From Squalus acanthias (lineage: Eukaryota): a stretch of 64,000 nucleotides of DNA. The stretch is taken from contig CM059432.1 of NCBI GenBank assembly GCA_030390025.1, forward strand, positions 6,572,001-6,636,000. The letters run 5' to 3'. Shown here piece by piece: positions 1-60,377 of this stretch (positions within the stretch are counted from its first letter, which is position 1; every line of letters begins with the position of its first letter). The position numbers were made by a program, and so were the translations under genes. Under the pieces are notes generated by a model, which had not been told where the DNA came from, made no database searches, and saw nothing but the letters and a program-made list of their open reading frames with translations.

Positions 1-255
1 GGGACGATTGGTGGCAGGGGTCCGGAATCCGGACACCCTGAGGGAGGCTTACCAAAAACCGGAAATAGCGCGACCTGGGCCCAGGCATTTCCGGACTTGG
101 CACGTGTTTCTGATGTCCGAAGTCCGGAAATATCGCAACCTGGGCTCGGGCGTTTCCGGATTTCGGACATCAGAAACACGTTCCGAAGTCCGGAAAATCC
201 CGAAAACCGGCTTGGCCTCGGTCCCGAGGTTGCTGGATTCGGGACGCTCATCCTG
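1..255. mobile_element. Right end of a non-autonomous Tc1/mariner-pogo (Tigger-like) DNA element
   Basis: Terminus reverse-complements to CAGGATGAGCGTCCC (Tigger/MER46-like TIR) and is followed by TA at 256-257. Body is CpG-rich with repeated TCCGGA/TCCGAA subrepeats. Left end lies outside the window. Confidence 0.6.
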
Positions 256-4000: not shown

Positions 4001-4662
4001 TTGACAGATCGACCTGTCAAATATATGAATAGGGATCACCCCAAAAACACTGTAAAACATTAAATAAATTTAAAAAATAATCACATTTTTGAAATGAGTT
4101 GAAATTACAATAAATTAAATATTTTAAACAAAAAATTAATTTTTTGAAAAAAAGAATTAAAGTTTTTTATGGGGCTAAAAATAAATTTTCCTTTTATTTT
4201 AAAATGATAAATGAGTGAAAAGAATTTTTTTTTTTACTTTTTTCAAATCTTATGCTGGTAAAAGCAGGCCTGCTTTTACCAGGCGTAAGATTTTCTAAGG
4301 GTTTTCTGCGAGCGGAGGTTCTCCAGAAAGCGGAACTATCCGCCCGCCGAGGCCCTTCTCTAGGGCCGGCGTCCGATCTGTCAAGAGCATTCTTGACAGA
4401 TCGGAAATGCCCGTTTTCAGCATTTCCTACGGGTGTGTACAGAGCGCGTACACACCTGTAGGGATCGGAATATACGGCCCATTGAATATATTCAAGGCTG
4501 AGATAGACAGATTTTTGAGCAACAGAGGAGTCAAGGGTTTTGGGGAGCGGGCAGGAAAGTGGAGTTGAGGCCAAAATCAGATCAGCCCATGATCTCATTA
4601 AATGACGGAGCAGGCTCGAGGGGCCGAATGGCCTGCTCCTGCTCCTATTTCTTATGTTCTTA
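1081..4662 (+). mobile_element. CR1 LINE with nearly complete but frameshifted ORF2 (APE endonuclease + RT) and 3' tail; interrupted by a MITE at 3771-4480
   Basis: APE motifs ITETW, YRPP, GDFN, LDLV (1105-1941). RT motifs [16 protein letters not shown] (2595-3368). Ends in the (ttcttatg)n tail. Confidence 0.95.
3771..4480. mobile_element. MITE family A (probably PIF/Harbinger-type)
   Basis: TIRs gggccgtattttccgat / atcggaatatacggccc. 3-bp flanks aat/att. It interrupts the CR1 sequence gagtc-att-gaatata. Confidence 0.85.
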
Positions 4663-5397: not shown

Positions 5398-5733
5398 CAA
5401 AAGCAAAATACTGCGGATGCTGGAAATCTGAAATAAAAACAGGAAGTGCTGGAAATACTCAGCAGGTCAGGCAGCGTCTGTGGAGAGAGAAACAGAGTTA
5501 ACGTTTCAGGTCAATGACCTTTCGTCAGAACTGGAAAAAGTTAGAGATTTAACTGATTTAAGCAAATACAGAGGCAGAGAAAGGGGAGGGGGGAGGAAAG
5601 AACAAAAATGAAGGTCTGTGATAGGGTGGGAGGCAGGAGAGATTAAATTACAAAAGGGATGATTGTACAAAGTCCCATTACCATCTCCTTTTGCTTTGTA
5701 CAATCATCCCTTTTGTAATTTAATCTCTCCTGC
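5398..5733 (-). mobile_element. Penelope-like element terminus (family 1) with hammerhead motif and terminal inversion
   Basis: Homologous to 27620-28000. Hammerhead core at 5500-5528. 40-bp perfect inverted repeat at 5633-5672 / 5694-5733. Confidence 0.85.
5500..5528 (-). ncRNA. Minimal hammerhead ribozyme motif
   Basis: CUGACGA-A-AGGUC-AUU-GACCU-GAAA-CG-UU, with stem I AGUU/AACU. Confidence 0.75.
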
Positions 5734-6639
5734 ATCTCCGGCTTGCCAATGATCAAGAATCTATTGGGCGGAAAAGGTATTTAAAAAAAAAATCAGAGCC
5801 AAGAGTTGAACAGATTAGCACAGGTGGTGAAAAAAAGTGACTGTCCAAAAGTGAGTCTGAAAATCCTAAAAGGGAAATATTTCCAACTTTACTCTTCCTC
5901 CAGGTAATAGATCTTTCCAGTTTCTTTGGGCAGAGAAGATTTGGGTGTTAGTATCTGTACTGACTAAGTTCAAGTCTGTAAGAGAGCAAAAGTAGTCTAG
6001 GCAGCAGGTTGGTGAGGTAAATAAAATATAAGCAAGAGATGAATATGCCTTGATAAACATTTTGTTCACCATTGAATTCAAATCTTCTGATTGTCGATGG
6101 GACGCGGGGTAGTGTTGTACTGATCGGCAGTTGCGGAGACAAAATACGAAATCTCACCAGTTTGTTTCAGATGGACAGCCTTTTTTGCTATGTATGCCTG
6201 ATAAATACCCACTACCTTTCCCAACTGAATTTCTTCTTCCATGATTACTAAAAGAAAATCTGCACCATTGAAAGAATTATACTGCTAAACAAGAGGTACC
6301 ACAGCGTGGTGTGACACTCCTTCTCCCTGCAGTCCTCACACTTCTGCTGGACCTGGAGGATACATAGATCATTGATTCTTCCCATTACAGAGGGGATGGT
6401 GGAGAGATATGTAAGAGTAAGACTGCCTCAGTTTTTCCTTCCTCCTAAAATGCACTTCCTTTCAAATTCAAGTAATGGTTCCTTAAGTACCACCCCTTGA
6501 TTTGTCTCATTATGTTTCCTACTCATTAACATCTTGCTCGATGACCCTTGGCCTTTCACCCAAGTTTATTTTAAAGACAAAAGTCAATCCAAGCACATCC
6601 TAATGGATGGTCAAAGAGAGCTATTGGTCATGGTGAGAA

Positions 6640-9570: not shown

Positions 9571-10061
9571 GGGCCGTATTTTGCGACCCCTACTGGGTGC
9601 GTACGCGCCCGTAGGGGCCGCACAAGTGCCGGGGTTAGGCATGCGAAGCGCATGCGCTGAAACCCGGCATTTGCGATCTGTCAAGAATTCTCTTTTGTTT
9701 AAAATATTTAATTAAATGCCATTTTAATTAATTTTATATATGTAATTAAAAAAAAAATTATTTCATGTGTGTATATTTTTAAGTCATCCCCATTCATACT
9801 TATGACAGTTCCGTACGTACGGAACTCGCATAAGTATGAATGGGGATTCCCTTCTTTCATTGGTTGGGCTGGCCCATGTGATCCCAGGGGCGCTTGTGAA
9901 CCGCATGCATCCCTGGGATACGTGGGCCTCTACGCATTTCTACCAGGAGAGGCCCAGGATCGCAAGCCTCCGTATCTCCTGGACCACCAGGTAATTGCGC
10001 AGAAAATGTGATGATCGGAGGCATCCGCCCGCGGGAAGCCTCCGATCGCAAATTCAGGCCC
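9571..10061. mobile_element. MITE family A, opposite orientation to 3771-4480, internally deleted
   Basis: TIRs gggccgtattttgcga / tcgcaaattcaggccc. Flanks aat/agt. Internal homology to the reverse complement of 3771-4480. Confidence 0.85.
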
Positions 10062-14413: not shown

Positions 14414-14481
14414 TCTATTTCTGCCAATCTTTCAGACTTTGGTTGAATGTTGTCAGGCAGTACAAACTCTAAAATAGTAGA

Positions 14482-14633
14482 AGTCGCACAACACCAGGTT
14501 ATAGTCCAACCTGACGAAGGAGCAGCCCTCCGAAAGCTTGTGATTTCAAATAAAGCTGTTGGACTATAACCTGGTGTTGTGCGACTTCTCACATTTGTCC
14601 ACCCCAGTCCAACACCGGCATCTCCACATCATG
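14482..14633 (+). mobile_element. Penelope-type mini-element (family 2) with hammerhead core and 5' inversion
   Basis: 14-bp TSD tctaaaatagtaga (14468-14481 / 14634-14647). 32-bp perfect inverted repeat 14479-14510 / 14558-14589. Core at 14511-14539. Confidence 0.85.
14511..14539 (+). ncRNA. Minimal hammerhead ribozyme motif
   Basis: CUGACGA-A-GGAG-CAGCC-CUCC-GAAA-GC-UU. Stem I is reduced to about 2 bp by the inversion. Confidence 0.65.
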
Positions 14634-16240
14634 TCTAAAATAGTAGATTTTGACTGAGGATAATTTTGGATGTTATTTTTCTCTCGCTCTTTAATCTCCT
14701 GCATGCCGTGTACCATTCCTCAATTGGCTGGGGAGGAGTCCTGTAACAAGCCTTTGCCAGTATCATTACTGAACTGGCTATTACATGCACGAGAATCTGG
14801 CGTGTTAACTGACCTCTTTTCCTTTTTTTAAGAGGCACTCTTAACATTTTCCTGAGGTGACACTGTCAAGATCAGCAACTTACATGGAAATTTTCAAATG
14901 AGAGCTTGCATCTTGCCACACCCTGGTACGATTATTTTGTGCGCAATTGCTGTCCTCCACTGGATCACCTGCCTAAGTAGATATTGAACAGTAGTAGAAA
15001 AATATTAGCACCTCGAAGTGCCGCTGAAAGATCCATTGAAAAATTACAGTTTTGTTAAGTAAGTTGCAAAAGGTATAATTTCAACACTTGGATACAAGTG
15101 TGTGAATAAGCTTATAAAACTGTATTGCTCTATATTTATAATCCTTTGAGGCAAAGTAGTAGTATTTCATTTAATTCAATGTAATGGAGCGAATTTTTTT
15201 TTTAAAAATTGTGTATTTTTCAATTTTATTTTATATAATTGCTGAGATCAAAACTTACAGAATAAATGGTTTGCAGATGTAACTTGATAGAAATGGCATA
15301 TTTTGATACTTGCTAATGAACCGTGATACTCATAAGATTTAAGTGTTTATTGCAGAGCAACAGAAAGAAGAAAATAGTCTAAGTGCTTTTCAGTACAAAG
15401 AATGCAACTAAATTTAATGTGGCTGGTCTGGAAACCATTTCAAATTTTTCTGTGAAAGGTTTTTTTGGTGAAGCATTCCCAGTTCTGTCCCATTATAGGA
15501 CGCTGTCAGGTGGTGGACTAAAAAGTAAAGCAAGGCATCGGACATAGAATGCAAAGCCTTTTATATTATTTTCTCTATGAGCTGTGACATAGCAGTCCTA
15601 TGACTAATATGGTGCCGTAAGGGATGCAATGTCCATATGGATTCTCTGGAACATTGCCAGCAAGTGCATGTGAATGATTGCTTTTAGAGGGAATAGAATA
15701 CTTTATAAAACATATGGAAACATTTCACTAAGTTCTCATAAGGACTTCGTCCCCAAGCACATCTATGATCACCCTTCCTGAAATTACTTGACTACTTGAT
15801 TGTTCCAGAAATGTAGCATAAATTTGCATATTCAACATGAATTCTTTTACAGAATGCTGCATTGCTTATAAAACATTATTTTTAACCACTTAGTCATACT
15901 GTGTGAGTTGATGCACGTGCAACAAACTTTCTTGAATTATAATGAAACATTGAGGTCTCGTCTTGTCATATGTAAGAAGTGTTCTTTTTCTTTAAATAGT
16001 TGAATTGGAAATATATCGTCCATAATGCCAAGATTTTAGTTTCCGAAATGTGAATAAGAAGTTGCAGTAGCAGGAAATAATGGTTAACCTCTCAGACAGA
16101 CAATATTAAATAATTGAAGGACATAAAGCATAGAACAAAAATAGGGCATTTGTTCCACAAGATCAGCCCCTTCCATGCACAAGCTATTCTAACATGCATC
16201 ACCTTTACTTATTTAATATTCGGAATGAAAATTAATGCCT

Positions 16241-16443
16241 ATAGGCTGACACTCCAGTGCAGTACTGAGGGAGGGCCGCACTGTCAGAGGTGCCGTCTTT
16301 CGGATGAGATGTAAAAACGAGGCCCCGTCTGCTCTCTCGGGTGGACATAAAAGATCCCATGGCACTATTTTGAAGAAGAGCAGGAGAATTATCTCCGATA
16401 TCCTGGCCAATATTTATCCCTCAATCAACATCACTAAAAACAC
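16241..16443 (+). mobile_element. Deu-domain SINE, partial
   Basis: ggtgccgtctttcggatgag...aagatcccatggcactatt...cctggccaatatttatccctca, the Deu-domain as recalled from the AmnSINE1/SacSINE1 group. Confidence 0.85.
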
Positions 16444-16858
16444 CAGCGGACGTCCCAAAGTGCTTTACAGCCAATTAAATACTTTTGAAGTGTAGTCACT
16501 GTTGTAATGTAGGAAACGCGGCCACCAATTTGCGCACAACAAGCTCCCACAAATAAACAAAGTGATAATGACCAGATAATTTGTTTTTAGTGATGTTGAT
16601 TGAGGGATAAATATTGGCCAGGACACCGGGGATAACTCCCCTGCTATTCTTCGAAATAGTGCCATGGGATCTTTTACGTCCACCTGAGAGAGCAGACAGG
16701 GCCTTGGTTTAACGTCTCATCCGAAAGACGGCACCTCCGACAGTGCAGCACTCCTCAGCCCTGCACTGGGAGTGTCAGCCTAGTTTTTTGTGCTCAAGTC
16801 TCTGGAGTGGGACTTGAACCCACAACCTTCTGCTACCAAATGAGCCACGGCTGACACT
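16444..16858 (-). mobile_element. Deu-domain tRNA SINE
   Basis: B box ggttcaagtcc, Deu-domain and L2-type tail on the minus strand. Confidence 0.9.
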
Positions 16859-17373: not shown

Positions 17374-17410
17374 AGTGTTCTGCTGAAAGGTCATCGACCC
17401 GAAACGTTAA

Positions 17411-17447
<37 letters not shown>

Positions 17448-17544
17448 CCGATGCTGCCTGACCCGACCTGCCGCGTGTTTTCCAGCATTTTCTGTTTTTA
17501 TTACAGATTCCCGGCGTCCACGATTGTTGCGCTTTTATTTCAGC
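17374..17544 (+). mobile_element. Penelope-type mini-element (family 1) with degenerate hammerhead and (CT)n expansion
   Basis: TSD gtatgaaacc (17364-17373 / 17545-17554). Core at 17380-17408 reads CUGCUGA (A6 mutated). Confidence 0.8.
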
Positions 17545-17689
17545 GTATGAAACCTGTTCAGTGCAGGAAGAATATGCAAAATAACAATTTGTCGTTTACA
17601 GGGTGACGCTTACTTTTTAAGTTGGTGTAGCAATTCCAGAGTTGTACTTTGTTGGACTCTGTACTTCATTTCAGTTTAACTTTAGTAAC

Positions 17690-18141
17690 CATAAATAAAA
17701 ACAGAAAATGCTGGAAATGCTCAGCAGGTCAGGCAGCATCTGTGTAGAGAGAAACAGAGTTAACGTTTCAGGTCGATGACCCTTCGTCAGAACTGGAAAA
17801 AGCTGGAGATGGAACAGGTTTTTAAGCAAGTGTAGGGGCAGGGAAAGGGTGGAGGGGAGGAAAGAACAAAAGGGAAGGTCTGTGATAGGGTGGAAGGCAG
17901 GAGCGATTAAGAGACAAAAGGGATGATGGTGCAAGGCAAACAGAGATGGTAATGGGGCAAGTTAAGAAACAAAAGATGACTCTAGATGAAGTGTAAATGG
18001 CACTGGCAGAATGATCGACAGCTGCCATGTGAGAGAGAGAGAAAAAAAAAAATGGAAAAAAAAGATAGGGGCAGAGGTTATGGTCTGAAATTGTTGAACT
18101 CGATATAGAGTCCAGAAGGCTGTAAAGTGCCTAATCGAAAC
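17690..18141 (-). mobile_element. Penelope-like element 3' end (family 1)
   Basis: 13-bp TSD taactttagtaac (17677-17689 / 18142-18154). Encodes FRLGTLQPSGLYIEFNNFRP*. Intact hammerhead at 17762-17790. Confidence 0.9.
17762..17790 (-). ncRNA. Minimal hammerhead ribozyme motif
   Basis: CUGACGA-A-GGGUC-AUC-GACCU-GAAA-CG-UU, with stem I AGUU/AACU. Confidence 0.75.
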
Positions 18142-21827: not shown

Positions 21828-21928
21828 GAAATAAAAACAGAAAATGCTGGAAATACTCAGCAGGCCAGGCAGCATCTGTGGAGAGAGAAACCGAGTTAAC
21901 ACTTCAGGCCGATGACCTTTCGTCAGAG
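21828..21928 (-). mobile_element. Penelope family 1 mini-fragment with degenerate hammerhead
   Basis: Ends exactly at the CUGACGA core. The GAAACG segment is mutated. Confidence 0.75.
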
Positions 21929-26948: not shown

Positions 26949-27397
26949 AATATATTTGATTTTTCAAAAGGCCTTCGCTAAGGTAACACATAGTAGACTC
27001 GTGACTAAGGTCAGAACATGTGGAGTCGGGACAAGTAGCAGAATAGATAGCAAGCTGGCTACAAAACAGAAAACAGAGAGTAGAGGTTAAAGGTAGTTAG
27101 TCAGACTGGCAAAAGGTGGGAACTGGTGTTCCACAAGGATCGATGCTGGGACCACTGTTCAGCACTTACGTAAACAATTTGGACTCTGGAATCGGAAGTA
27201 CAATTTCAAAATTTGCGGACGACATCAAATTGGGGAGTGTGGTTAATACAGAGGAGGACTGCAATAAAATACAGGAAGACATTCATAAACTTGCAGAATG
27301 GGCATGTAATTGTCAAATGAACTTCAATATAGATAAGTGTGCTGTGGTATATTTTGGTAGGAAGAATGAGGAGGCCACAAACACCTTGGAAAATAAG

Positions 27398-28000
27398 CTT
27401 TGCGGAACACCTCCGTTCAGTCCGTAAGGGGGACCCCGAGCTCCCGGTGGCCTGTCACTTTAATTCACCGCTTCACTCCCACTCTGACCTCACCGTCCTC
27501 GGCCTATTACACTGTTCCACGGAAGCGCAGCGTAAGCTCGAGGAACAGCACCTCATCTTTCGTTTAGGCACGCTACAGCCCTCTGGACTCAATATCGAGT
27601 TCAACAATTTTAGATCATAACCTCAGCTCCAATCACATTTATATTTTATTTTTTCCACCCTTTTATTTGCCCCCCCCCCCACCTTTTTTTTCCTCCTAGA
27701 AGCTGGCAGCTGTCCTTCATTCTGCCAGTGGATTTCACACTTCTTTCAGCCTTAATCTGTCACATTAACACCACCTCTAGCCTTGCATATCTCTTAATGT
27801 CTCTTAATGTCTCTTCATCTCCCCCTTTGTTCTTTTATCCCCTCCCCCTTTTCCCAGCTTTACTCTGGCCTTAAATCTATTTGATTTCCGGCTCTTCACA
27901 GTTCTGACGAAAGGTCATCGACCTGAAACGTTAACTCTCTTTCTCTCTCCACGGATGCTGCCTGGCCTGCTGAGTTTTTCCAGCGTTTTCTGTTGTTATT
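27398..28000 (+). mobile_element. Penelope-like element: GIY-YIG endonuclease C-terminus plus pLTR
   Basis: 12-bp TSD ttggaaaataag (27386-27397 / 28001-28012). Encodes FAEHLRSV...VACHFNSPLHS...RKLEEQHLIFRLGTLQPSGLNIEF. Confidence 0.92.
27904..27932 (+). ncRNA. Minimal hammerhead ribozyme motif
   Basis: CUGACGA-A-AGGUC-AUC-GACCU-GAAA-CG-UU, with stem I AGUU/AACU. Confidence 0.78.
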
Positions 28001-28351
28001 TTGGAAAATAAGTGTCTAACTAAGGTAGATGAGCAGAGGGATCTGGGGGTACAGATATACAAATCACTAAAAGTAGCTACGCAGGTTGATAAGGACATAA
28101 AAAAGCAAACCAAGCACTGGGGTTCATTTCTAGAGTGATAAAATTGAAAAGCAGAGACGTTATATTAAACTTGTATAGAACCTTGGTTCGACCATACTTG
28201 GAGTACGGTGAACAGTTCTGGTCTCCATATTCTATGACGGATATAGAGGTGCTTGGGAAGGTGCAAAAAAGATTTACCAGGATGATACCAGAACTGAGAG
28301 GTTATACCTATGAAGAAAGGTTGAACAGGCTGGGGCTCTTTTCTCTAGAAA

Positions 28352-43405: not shown

Positions 43406-44492
43406 CCTTTGTGAAGTGCTCAGCTGGATTTTCTGTACAGGAATCTATTTTGGGTCCATTGGGTCTGGATTTGTAGAATGCAAAACACAGTTTTGTTATA
43501 GTTTGTACACTGCTGTGAAGATTGAAGCTACTTTATGTGATGGCAAATGAAATGTTCCAGAATATTCACAACATGAAAAGTTTCCCAAACCACTAAATTT
43601 GTTGCCCTGAATTTCTCAAGAGGCACCGTGGCACAGTAAGCATGTTTTAAATCAAAAGACATCAAGAATACCTTACATACTAATCAGAGCGTGTTGTGAG
43701 GGAGAAAACTTCAGCGTGGAACAGAAGGTGGCCCGAGGGATTTTTAATGGCACTTTTGATATATGAAAATATACAATAAGTGAAAGTTAAGTATGCTTCT
43801 TCAAAGATTTCTTGAAATAGTTTCTTTTGGGGATCCATATTAAAAGAACTTAAGTCAACACCTGCCATTCATCAAATGTCTCTTCATTAGTTTGCTCCAA
43901 ATCAAGACCAGTGTCTCGAATGTTTGTTTTGCCCCTTAAATAGCTGGTTTGATTTTCATAAATTTAGCATTATAAAGCTTTCAAATAAAATTATTCTGCC
44001 TGCAAAGCTGAAAAACTTCAGTGGTTATAAATGTAAAGACTTGTGTCAACAGGTCAAAGAAATTTGAAATGAGTAATGGATATGGTATTTCATTTTTGAA
44101 ATGTAAACTTTTTAAAATTCAGCTAGATTTCCCTTGTACCAAATTAAATTTCATCATGTTTGCCGTACTCCTCAGAAGGGATTAATAAAAAAAAAAGTGG
44201 AGGGTTTTGCACAAGATGAAGAAGATAAACAAATAATAATTCTTAATGGACATAATTTTAACTCTTTAACATATACATATGCTTTTAGAAATCTCCCTTG
44301 GACAAATGCAGTGCAGTGGCGACTGTGTGCCTGATTGAATTGTTCATCGCGTGTGTTGACCTGAAGTGAACAGGGGTTGAAGAGTTACAGGAGGACTAAT
44401 TCCCCCTGTTCTTGAACACGGCTTTTGTTCAAACGCTTATAATCCTATTTCCTTACAGAGCGTCTTTTATTTCTCTGTCCATTCCTTTCAAA

Positions 44493-44672
44493 ATGCGGAG
44501 ATGCCGGTGTTGGACTGGGGTGGACAAAATTGAGAGGTCGCACAACACCAGGTTGTAGTCCAACAGTTTTATTTGAAATCACAAGCTTTCGGAGCTATCG
44601 ATCGCCCCTTCCTCAGGTGATTTCAAATAAAACTGTTGGACTATAACCTGGTGTTGTGCGACCTCTCAATTT
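44493..44672 (-). mobile_element. Penelope-type fold-back mini-element (family 2)
   Basis: 13-bp TSD cattcctttcaaa (44480-44492 / 44673-44685). 56-bp inverted arms 44527-44582 / 44617-44672 with one mismatch. Confidence 0.9.
44583..44616 (-). ncRNA. Minimal hammerhead ribozyme core closed by a 56-bp stem I
   Basis: CUGAGGA-A-GGGGC-GAUCGAUA-GCUCC-GAAA-GC-UU. Confidence 0.8.
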
Positions 44673-44924
44673 CATTCCTTTCAAATACAGTGTTAGTTTT
44701 GATAAAGCACTTTCTTAAACTGGATTTGCTTTTGTATCTGAACTAAAATTGTTGCAATCTCCACTTTACCATTTATGATGCTGACATTGATTTTTTTTTT
44801 CTTTTGCTGCTCCTGCAGTGCATTTTGCATTTTGGACATTTTGGCAATAAGACCTCTATCAAAGAATCAAATCCTATGGCGCCTCTTTGTGAGGACTTAA
44901 GGACCACTGTAGAGCTATCTTTAA

Positions 44925-45115
44925 AGTAGCAAAATCCTGCGGATGCTGGAAATCCGAAATAACAACAGAAAACGCTGGAAAAACTCAGCAGGCCAGGCAA
45001 CATCCGTGGAGAGAGAAACAGAGTTAGCGTTTCAGGTCGAAGATCTTTCGTCAGAACTGTAAAAAAGCAGGAAATGGAATAGGTTTTAAAGCAGGTTTAG
45101 GGGCGGGGAAATGGG
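44925..45115 (-). mobile_element. Penelope family 1 terminus with mutated hammerhead (45026-45054)
   Basis: Homologous to 5398-5560. The conserved U of the cleavage triplet is changed to C. Confidence 0.8.
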
Positions 45116-57475: not shown

Positions 57476-58311
57476 AGTAATTATTACAGAATTCAAATAT
57501 TCCAAAAATGTTATGTTTTAAAAAAAATAATCATAATTTAATCTTTAAGCTTCTAGTGTCCAATGTGAGACATTGTGATGTTGAGAGGGATGTCGTGTGC
57601 AAATAACCCAACAGGGGCTTTCAGACCACTTTACAGAAACGTAAATGGGCAGTGAAGAATGTTAAGGAACATTGAGCCACTTGCCTGATCTATGTCTTAT
57701 TTCGGGAAAAAGCACAGGCAGATATTTCAAAATAGCTTCAACTAGTATTACATTTAAGTGGTGGACTGTCGGTCATTCATCATCAATAGTTAAAACCGTG
57801 AATTCACATAAAAAGAAAATAGAAACATGGAATGTTTGCAGTGGTTTTTGCTCACATATGTTTTACAGAGCTCATGAAATAGAATTCAAACTAAAGGTGA
57901 GATCATCATTTTCTACAGTGTTTTTTTTCCATTTATCTTGCCACATCAGGCAGACATTACACTTGGAGACAGTATATTTTTGAAGGTTGCTGTCTAAAAT
58001 GAAAACGCATGATGGTAAAATCATACTTTTTACAGCAAACTTATGCTGTGCTATATATAATCCGATGTATGTAATGCAAGTGAGGGAAACTCTGTGGATG
58101 GTATCGGTTATTTACATTAATAAAAGTGCTACCGATTATTTAGGGCAGGAGCATTTTTAGGTGATTTTTTTTTTAAAGTATTAATACACTGGCTGGTGAA
58201 TATAGTTAACCTATAGTTTCTTTACTTAACTGTTCTGTTATATTCTTCACTAGAGCTTCCATTGTAAATATTTCTGCACCTGTTTGCTAAATACAACGGT
58301 ACAATATCTTT

Positions 58312-58450
58312 ACAAAAACAAAATACTGCGGATGCTGGCAATCTGAAATAAAAACAGAAAATGCTGGAAATACATTTCAACGTTAACTCTGTTTCTCGCT
58401 CCACAGATGCTGCCTGACCTGCTGAGTATTTCCGGCATTTTCTGTTTTTA
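58312..58450. mobile_element. Penelope family 1 inverted mini-element
   Basis: Arms aaaaacagaaaatgctggaaatac / gtatttccggcattttctgttttt. The second part begins at acgttaactctg. Degenerate TSD gtacaatatcttt / gtacgatattttt. Confidence 0.75.
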
Positions 58451-59221
58451 GTACGATATTTTTGATGATTATTGAGGAAAAATTAACTTTCTCATTATGG
58501 ATTGTGCGCAGGCAGTCAGTCCGTCCCACTGCTAAATTGATATGCTTTGCGCCTCTTTTACATCTGAAAAACGGGCGCAACGCACACCAATTTCTACCCC
58601 AGTGAAGTGACATTTTCGTTGCTAGCTTTTCCATCTGCACGTTTAAAAAAAAAAAGAGAACCAATCTAAACTTCCTAGCTGTATTTAATAAGTAGCCAGG
58701 TAAGGCAAAGGGTAAATGGAATAGAGTAAATGGTTAACAAAGTAACCATATGTACAAATACATTAAGTGTTTTATTAACTAAGTAAGCCTGCTGAGTTTA
58801 GGAGGAAGTTTGCGGTCACTTGTAAAAAAAAATCTGCAACTCAAGACCTCTCAAGACTGTAACAATATGGACTTCAGACTGTGCTTTCCAGAAGGTCATG
58901 GAATGAGCGCAAATTTAAATTTACAGTTGCTTTGCTAACATTGGATAGGGTCCTCCAAAAACAGATTTAAACTGTCAATACCTTTATCATTTCTGTGTGC
59001 CAGTTTTTCTTTCTTTGCGAGTCTGTTGCAGTTTTGAGGGCAAAATAATTTTTCAGTGTATTTTACAATATTGGTACAGCAAGGATCTCTGGCAAATTGA
59101 AGGCACTAATGCTGAAATAAGAAAAGTTATAATGACAATCTGCTACAAAGGTTCGAGTATAAATTCGGTCGAAGATATTTCGACGTGGGCCTTCATCCTT
59201 AAACCAATTACCATTGCTCAG

Positions 59222-60242: not shown

Positions 60243-60377
60243 GTGTGAAATCCCAGAATCCATTGCCAACTCTGGAGGGTTCTATCCAAAATGTTGAGTT
60301 GAAGTACTGTAGCACATCATTGGTAAAATGTGTTTCGGGGACCATGGGATCAATAAAAGCTTGTGCCAAAGCCCCAG
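60243..60377 (+). CDS. VPS13B: Internal coding exon of VPS13B (Cohen syndrome protein), probably equivalent to human exon 18
   Basis: Acceptor tttctttttattAG at 60242 and donor CAG|GTATGT at 60378. The 135-nt phase 1-1 exon reads (G)VKSQNPLPTLEGSIQNVELKYCSTSLVKCVSGTMGSIKACAKAP, nearly identical to the VPS13B peptide as I recall it (GVKSKNPLPTLEGSIQNVELKYCSTSLVKCASGTMGSIKICAKAP). Neighbouring exons were not found in the window. Confidence 0.93.

Follow-up and report, generated by a model that had tools for sequence, protein, structure and literature searches.

A young fold-back insertion around a hammerhead core in Squalus acanthias, a likely minimal stub of a Penelope-like element

The locus analyzed here raises the question of whether a hammerhead ribozyme clamped between two long inverted arms is a specialized ribozyme-hairpin unit, or the product that a retroelement leaves behind upon insertion. 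The element occupies positions 44493–44672 of the window, that is, the whole 64,000-nucleotide stretch of Squalus acanthias DNA under analysis (GenBank assembly GCA_030390025.1, contig CM059432.1, positions 6,572,001 to 6,636,000 of the forward strand). We conclude that it is a young, target-duplicated insertion and likely a minimal pLTR stub of a Penelope-like element (PLE), the mirror-image half of which was likely made during insertion itself, and we predict that the stub is a dead end.

Anatomy, age and genomic setting of the insertion

The outer limits of the element are set by two identical 13-mers that lie exactly 180 bp apart (Table 1). No other exact 13-mer pair occurs at this spacing among the 63,400 window positions tested, and a flanking-repeat finder returned a score of 13 at the element, the highest score among 300 random positions being 9. 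The target-site duplication proposed in an earlier note on this DNA is thus confirmed, being exact and the sole such pair at that spacing. The same holds for the two 56-bp inverted arms said to enclose directly a minus-strand minimal hammerhead core: 55/56 arm positions are complementary, and 34 nt remain between them as a loop. The note's account of the 180 bp was nevertheless incomplete, as arms and core add up to 146 bp and a 34-bp tail had been overlooked. At the inner end of the inverted copy, positions 44617–44620 form a 4-nt overlap with the native helix I 5' strand. The sole non-Watson-Crick pair between the arms, 44555/44644, is G-U on the plus strand and A-C on the minus strand. Folding yielded z-scores of −14 and −15, with 0/200 shuffles folding as well, and a continuous 56-bp stem was predicted for the plus strand, both by itself and when 90 nt of flank were included, in line with the long hairpin with one G-U pair that had been claimed for the VPS13B-sense strand.

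Table 1. Coordinates of the focal insertion, its hammerhead core, related copies and the host exon within the window.
Feature	Positions	Strand	Remarks
Target-site duplication, left copy	44480..44492	+	13 bp, exact repeat
One-sided 34-bp tail	44493..44526	-	3' extension, sense copy only, unpaired; outer end is a recurrent family end
Sense arm	44527..44582	-	56 nt downstream of predicted cleavage site; 44579-44582 is the native helix I 3' strand
Predicted cut	between 44583 and 44582	-
Minimal type I hammerhead core (predicted)	44583..44616	-	34-nt loop between arms
Palindromic AGCU (helix III remnant)	44587-44584	-
GAAA	44590-44587	-
Helix II	44608-44604 with 44595-44591	-	5 bp, one G-U, 8-nt loop
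CUGAGGA	44616-44610	-
Inverted 5'-truncated second copy, tail-less	44617..44672	+	outer end near second recurrent family end
Target-site duplication, right copy	44673..44685	+	13 bp, exact repeat
Copy 2 of the focal family	14468..14647	+ (opposite orientation to focal)	element 14482-14633
Copy 2 target duplication	14468-14481 and 14634-14647		14 bp
Second hammerhead repeat family, seven end modules	5402-5539, 17377-17519, 17693-17801, 21828-21927, 27895-28005, 44928-45065, 58319-58450		helix III ACGU
VPS13B exon, about residues 840-890	60243..60377	+	protein matches and tblastn

Contigs from 4 of 24 sequencing runs were compared with the focal region at 85% likeness. In each of two other organisms, C and D, one contig joins 44482 directly to 44676 and thereby skips 193 bp (180 + 13 bp), and a single 13-mer stands at the orthologous site in 2/2 of these organisms. 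The flanks of the empty-site contigs differ from the window at 28/809 (C) and 20/683 (D) letters. Because the site is empty in both C and D, we regard the insertion as young. Run X5 comes from another individual of the organism that the window represents, and its contig 10 extends 23 letters into the element with no difference; this entry is shorter than our 31-letter bridging rule and is suggestive of the element's presence in that individual. Run X13, which may be an RNA run, gave a 155-bp contig at 44009–44163 that may itself be DNA.

Could the fold-back have been created by the assembly at a palindromic repeat? Among the contigs listed, none bridges the whole filled allele, and the X5 contig stops after its short entry with the right flank uncovered, a gap that we did not count as evidence. 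On the other hand, the duplicated 13-mer is identical to the sequence at the empty site, one base distinguishes the two arms, the offset of the tail and many similar joints are present in independent runs, and four runs of one organism A sample, possibly the sample from which the window derives, contain 0.92 of the sampled words. An assembly artefact is, in our judgement, barely credible.

The genomic setting was established through a single exon (Table 1). All of its 59/59 protein matches carry the VPS13 N-terminal domain, with the named ones being VPS13B or hypothetical, and the exon is 98% identical to shark and skate VPS13B proteins. Searches by tblastn with five proteins returned one match each in the window, all at the position of this exon, and together with the protein matches they confirm that VPS13B lies on the plus strand, as the note had stated. 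No further VPS13B exon was found in the window, positions 1–60242 included, while Pfam on four candidate exons produced a single weak VPS13_N match, and PDB and Atlas searches with the exon yielded nothing usable. As earlier exons are absent from the window, the element is placed in the intron upstream of the 60243 exon, and it would accordingly be intronic, about 15.6 kb upstream of the nearest exon found. Its ribozyme strand is antisense to VPS13B. The intron 5' of this exon would exceed 60 kb and is repeat-dense.

This setting bears on the idea that the element is a co-opted, functional hairpin of the VPS13B transcript, acting as a source of siRNA or miRNA or as an ADAR substrate. The continuous stem predicted on the plus strand would suit such a role, and Penelope inverted repeats match siRNAs in transgenic Drosophila, as described in PMC3681739. 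Set against this are the absence of the element from C and D, which makes it young and unconserved, its distance to the nearest exon found, and Rfam miRNA matches of 32 and 29 bits against cut-offs of 80 and 62, such as any hairpin gives. We consider co-option highly improbable; incidental editing or dicing of the hairpin, as opposed to function, is plausible.

The hammerhead core and its predicted activity

Read on the minus strand, the loop between the arms runs in the order CUGAGGA, one unpaired A, helix II, GAAA, GC and UU, with a palindromic AGCU. It thus contains CUGANGA, GAAA and UH, helices I and II, and a palindromic remnant of helix III. A structured minimal-hammerhead scan returned four matches for the window against zero for 30 Markov controls, which, together with the layout of the core, supports the PLE-type minimal hammerhead that the note had recognized. 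Rfam gave no match to the focal element at the gathering threshold, and none of the nine matches at E ≤ 10 came from a hammerhead family. The minimal type I hammerheads of metazoan PLEs described by Cervera and de la Pena (2014, PMC4209133) resemble the focal core in their conserved core, 4-bp helix I, unpaired base before helix II, G10.1-C11.1 pair and palindromic helix III remnant. Unlike those hammerheads, the focal core has a helix I of 56 bp, formed in cis through the inversion, and a helix II of 5 bp with an 8-nt loop.

The native helix I measures 4 bp, as family contigs in 4/4 runs extend upstream of CUGA and only the UCAC/GUGA segments pair. This upstream continuation supports the earlier estimate of a native stem I of about 4 bp, and the position of the focal joint, directly on the 4-nt complementarity of helix I, likewise supports the proposal that the stem was lengthened through inversion.

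Does the long clamp help the ribozyme? For minimal hammerheads, PMC4209133 describes inactive monomers and weakly active dimers (PMC6155905 provides background on hammerhead dimers), and a double-hammerhead geometry with helix I formed between two molecules follows from the former account. Since helix I of a double hammerhead consists of the 5' strand of one molecule and the 3' strand of the other, the 56-bp clamp must swap between molecules. Under a nearest-neighbour model, which omits tertiary contacts and protein assistance, the modelled double hammerhead reached −205.1 kcal/mol versus −206.0 kcal/mol for two hairpins (−210.0 kcal/mol at MFE), while an inactive dimer paired through loop II reached −219.3 kcal/mol; the probability of the A15.1-U16.1 pair in the modelled monomer was 0. 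The near-palindromic, long loop II favours the inactive dimer in the model, and, with the modelled active dimer having no stability advantage over two hairpins, the clamp is predicted to trap the ribozyme rather than to help it. We predict that the focal ribozyme is silent, being antisense to VPS13B, without helix III closure as a monomer, and folded into 55-bp hairpins, two of which would have to exchange strands. The special clamped ribozyme unit that had been envisaged is not upheld by these results, as there is one hammerhead, no tandem, and an active dimer that the clamp does not favour in the nearest-neighbour model.

A very abundant family with variable joints

Matching contigs in the four runs numbered 8193, 1855, 16471 and 2246, nearly all of them on the element, which is a member of a very high-copy family. 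Two family ends recur in 4/4 runs among the 24 of 421 loose-end entries listed: at the tail end, 44493, the number of contigs that exit into unrelated flanks was 117, 19, 243 and 22, and at 44666–44672 loose ends were seen in 35, 14, 247 and 14 contigs.

The inversion joints, in comparison, vary. Among those listed (15 of 57), 15/15 differ from one another and all are unlike the focal joint; we read them as joints of other family copies. They derive from contigs matched at 85% likeness that have 21–27 letters on the short side and unknown letters between. Thirteen of the 15 link 44580–44598 to 44620–44641, and of these, 10 have at least one shared letter and six have 2–4 shared letters at the joint. 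One 4-letter joint was seen again in 3/4 runs. A contig from D (44567–44650; six substitutions, six gaps) crosses the joint region and, as the orthologous site in D is empty, a near-identical joint must exist elsewhere.

A second copy of the family lies in the window in opposite orientation (Table 1). It has a 29–32-bp inverted arm, with arms identical within the copy (32/32), and a tail of 44 bp. Its joint falls immediately before the CUGA at 14511 and trims helix I to 2 bp, for which reason the structured scan passed over this copy; its hammerhead strand is VPS13B-sense. The sense copy begins within 4 nt of CUGA in 2/2 window copies; most of the listed joints do not show a 5' end just before the hammerhead. 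The two copies differ in the joint and at both ends. The AT content of their flanks is about 68%, versus a window mean of 57%, and no open frame runs through either copy.

Both focal arms share four differences from copy 2. Near-identity of the arms within each copy (55/56 and 32/32), combined with these shared differences, indicates that each hairpin was made from a single template. With summed contig depth not taken as copy number, one of the shared arm differences is a minority variant in organism A (at 44536, 1.29M of 1.50M summed depth differ). As a side observation, the summed depth for the 8-nt loop II variant (44596–44606) at position 44606 is 1.28M in A, 0 in C and 12k in D, a skew toward organism A that hints at a lineage-specific subfamily burst.

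These data allow us to weigh another possibility, in which the hairpin as such would be a non-autonomous unit of the retrozyme or MITE type and would propagate through transcription and re-insertion, always with the same joint. The D contig with its near-identical joint, the common start of the sense copy close to CUGA in both window copies, and the abundance of focal-like loop II contigs in A compared with their scarcity in C and D would all be expected of such a unit. However, the listed joints differ mutually and from the focal one, the two window copies are unlike in joint and ends, and there is one hammerhead and no tandem; moreover, complementarity within helix I can remake the same joint independently, as the 4-letter joint found in three runs suggests. 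A propagating hairpin therefore appears very unlikely.

In the account of Li, Clavereau and Pollet (2026, 10.64898/2026.07.22.740005), animal non-LTR retrozymes are defined by a head-to-tail tandem in which every unit carries a hammerhead, and they are reported also from the one chondrichthyan sampled. Like the focal element, they are small, non-coding and PLE pLTR-related, with a type I hammerhead. Both window copies depart from the tandem arrangement, showing a single hammerhead and a head-to-head inversion, so that the retrozyme-like family suggested in the note is not borne out: neither copy contains a second hammerhead unit. The note's choice between a one-off artefact and a propagating retrozyme-like family also proved too narrow in view of the many joints, the second copy and the published PLE layout with its tail, here of 34 bp. 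The focal element most likely belongs to a large set of independently formed insertions of one design, which would make it neither a one-time accident nor a hairpin that propagates. Exact-pattern scans for the family found 0 copies in metagenome contigs, viral contigs and prokaryote genomes, as expected for a vertebrate repeat. Our literature search returned no description of such stubs in cartilaginous fish; Repbase and Dfam, which lay outside it, may well catalogue the family.

The window contains a second hammerhead repeat family with seven end modules (Table 1), one of which begins 240 bp to the right of the focal element. A second-family stub at 58299–58463 (copy 58312–58450) consists of a tail, a short arm, an inverted joint and a sense copy; its hammerhead core is lost at the joint, and its degraded 13-bp flanking repeat (two mismatches, score 7) is within the null range. 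At 17377–17801, two second-family ends face each other tail to tail across about 170 bp of unrelated DNA, the usual arrangement being head-to-head. A further second-family copy lies 280 bp downstream of a GIY-YIG-like C-terminus, which was assigned by an Atlas lead (0.90, 26% of members) to a 72-aa frame open to its stop at 27402–27617; Pfam on this fragment gave 0 matches. We take 27101–27427 to be a LINE-like reverse transcriptase fragment, with the GIY-YIG-like frame fused behind it. Another short GIY-YIG-like piece occurs at 18084–18140. The second-family copy with tail and inversion and the GIY-YIG-like neighbour fit the PLE reading of the focal element as supporting context. Other palindromes and a 200-bp inverted repeat pair in the window (88–196, 4245–4293, 4372–4405, 5630–5736, 9786–9847 and 16242–16782) are unrelated to the focal family by BLAST.

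PLE architecture and the origin of the mirror-image half

As no reverse transcriptase or endonuclease ORF is linked to the focal family, its PLE identity rests on architecture and ribozyme. Every architectural feature tested for an endonuclease-positive PLE insertion was found at the focal element: a head-to-head inverted, 5'-truncated copy, a one-sided tail of 30–40 bp, a target duplication at an AT-rich site, and a pLTR with a minimal hammerhead located upstream of the tail. L1 twin priming also gives an inverted, truncated insert with a flanking target duplication, in which the two parts are non-overlapping RNA pieces; by contrast, both focal arms copy the same 56 nt and their offset is a short tail.

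The typical Penelope structure given by Arkhipova et al. (2013, PMC3846280) combines an inverted pLTR, a 31-bp tail and a 9–10-bp duplication, and Craig et al. (2021, PMC8557442) name an inverted 5'-truncated copy and a 30–40-bp tail at one end as characteristic PLE features; a tail of that length is also described in PMC11167929. The insertions portrayed in PMC3846280 and PMC8557442 thus match the focal element in inverted truncated copy, tail, duplication, hammerhead end module and variable joints. The focal tail of 34 bp compares with the published 30–40 bp (31 bp in Pen2a), whereas the 44-bp tail of copy 2 is outside that range, and the 13-bp duplication compares with 8–10 bp in the rotifer PLE examples. 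Unlike the insertions described in these sources, the focal element is an end module alone (180 bp, ORF-less), and its joint sits on helix I, leaving the hammerhead core as the whole loop.

Biochemical precedent comes from Frangieh et al. (2024, PMC11167929), whose account describes purified PAc protein (Poseidon of Anolis carolinensis) as cutting and extending both strands of AT-rich DNA, with two internal start sites of reverse transcription marking the limits of the tail. In the same account, the PAc hammerhead cleaves only with protein and is dispensable for insertion in vitro, and Anolis RNA-seq showed no ends at the hammerhead cut. The focal family is PAc-like in its AT-rich targets and in a hammerhead about 60–90 nt upstream of the reverse transcription start sites; the PAc ORF begins in stem II, in contrast to the window copies with their lack of an open frame.

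How, then, was the mirror-image half made? The route that we consider rather probable is two-site priming, in which a PLE protein would place one nick in each strand of an AT-rich target, with a stagger of 13 nt. The first 3' end would prime reverse transcription at the outer start (the tail end, 44493), and this first cDNA would run through the hammerhead and end just 5' of CUGA, while the second 3' end would prime about 34 nt further in (44672) and the resulting cDNA would halt close to the cleavage site. Annealing of both cDNA ends by the four complementary bases of helix I could then be followed by fill-in.

A fold-back route under the same PLE identity is a possibility that we hold tentatively, at somewhat less than an even chance. 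Here the first cDNA, or an antisense template, would prime itself at helix I and copy its own arm, and an endonuclease would resolve the resulting hairpin at a point 34 nt before the outer end, so that the tail remains. In keeping with this route, the arms are nearly identical and have private variants in common, and the 4-nt complementarity lies precisely at the joint; precedents exist in the self-priming proposed in PMC3846280 and the endonuclease resolution proposed in PMC8557442. Against it, DNA folding gives a probability of about 0.03 for pairing of the cDNA 3' end at helix I (any 4-nt annealing being weak), and the PLE protein described in PMC11167929 extends both nicked strands in vitro, with reverse transcription starts that match the tail ends. 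Two-site priming and fold-back copying would yield identical sequence.

A further, unlikely reading would take the joints as a log of the role of the hammerhead in PLE retrotransposition in vivo, with the sense copy stopping at the 5' edge of the ribozyme and the inverted copy ending at the scissile bond. The sense stop could arise where the template RNA starts or where the folded ribozyme halts reverse transcriptase, and the focal inverted cDNA would end at the scissile bond in the manner of run-off on self-cleaved RNA. If this were true, a genome-wide census of joints would test both two-site priming and cleavage in vivo.

The architecture has already been published for PLEs, and the focal element likely adds a further example rather than a new self-propagating ribozyme hairpin. 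The locus itself, a recent intronic remnant of a repeat that is very abundant, is of little importance. In genomes of this kind, insertion routinely leaves perfect hairpins around hammerheads, and, as a warning for similar cases, such a hairpin is no proof of a selected RNA. Stubs of this kind are nonetheless the most compact complete outcome of PLE insertion, a reaction whose inversion-forming step is treated as still unsettled in PMC8557442 and PMC11167929. With near-identical arms, two fixed ends and short shared letters at the joints, the family offers thousands of natural replicates in which two-site priming can be set against fold-back synthesis and cDNA ends examined at the ribozyme cut.
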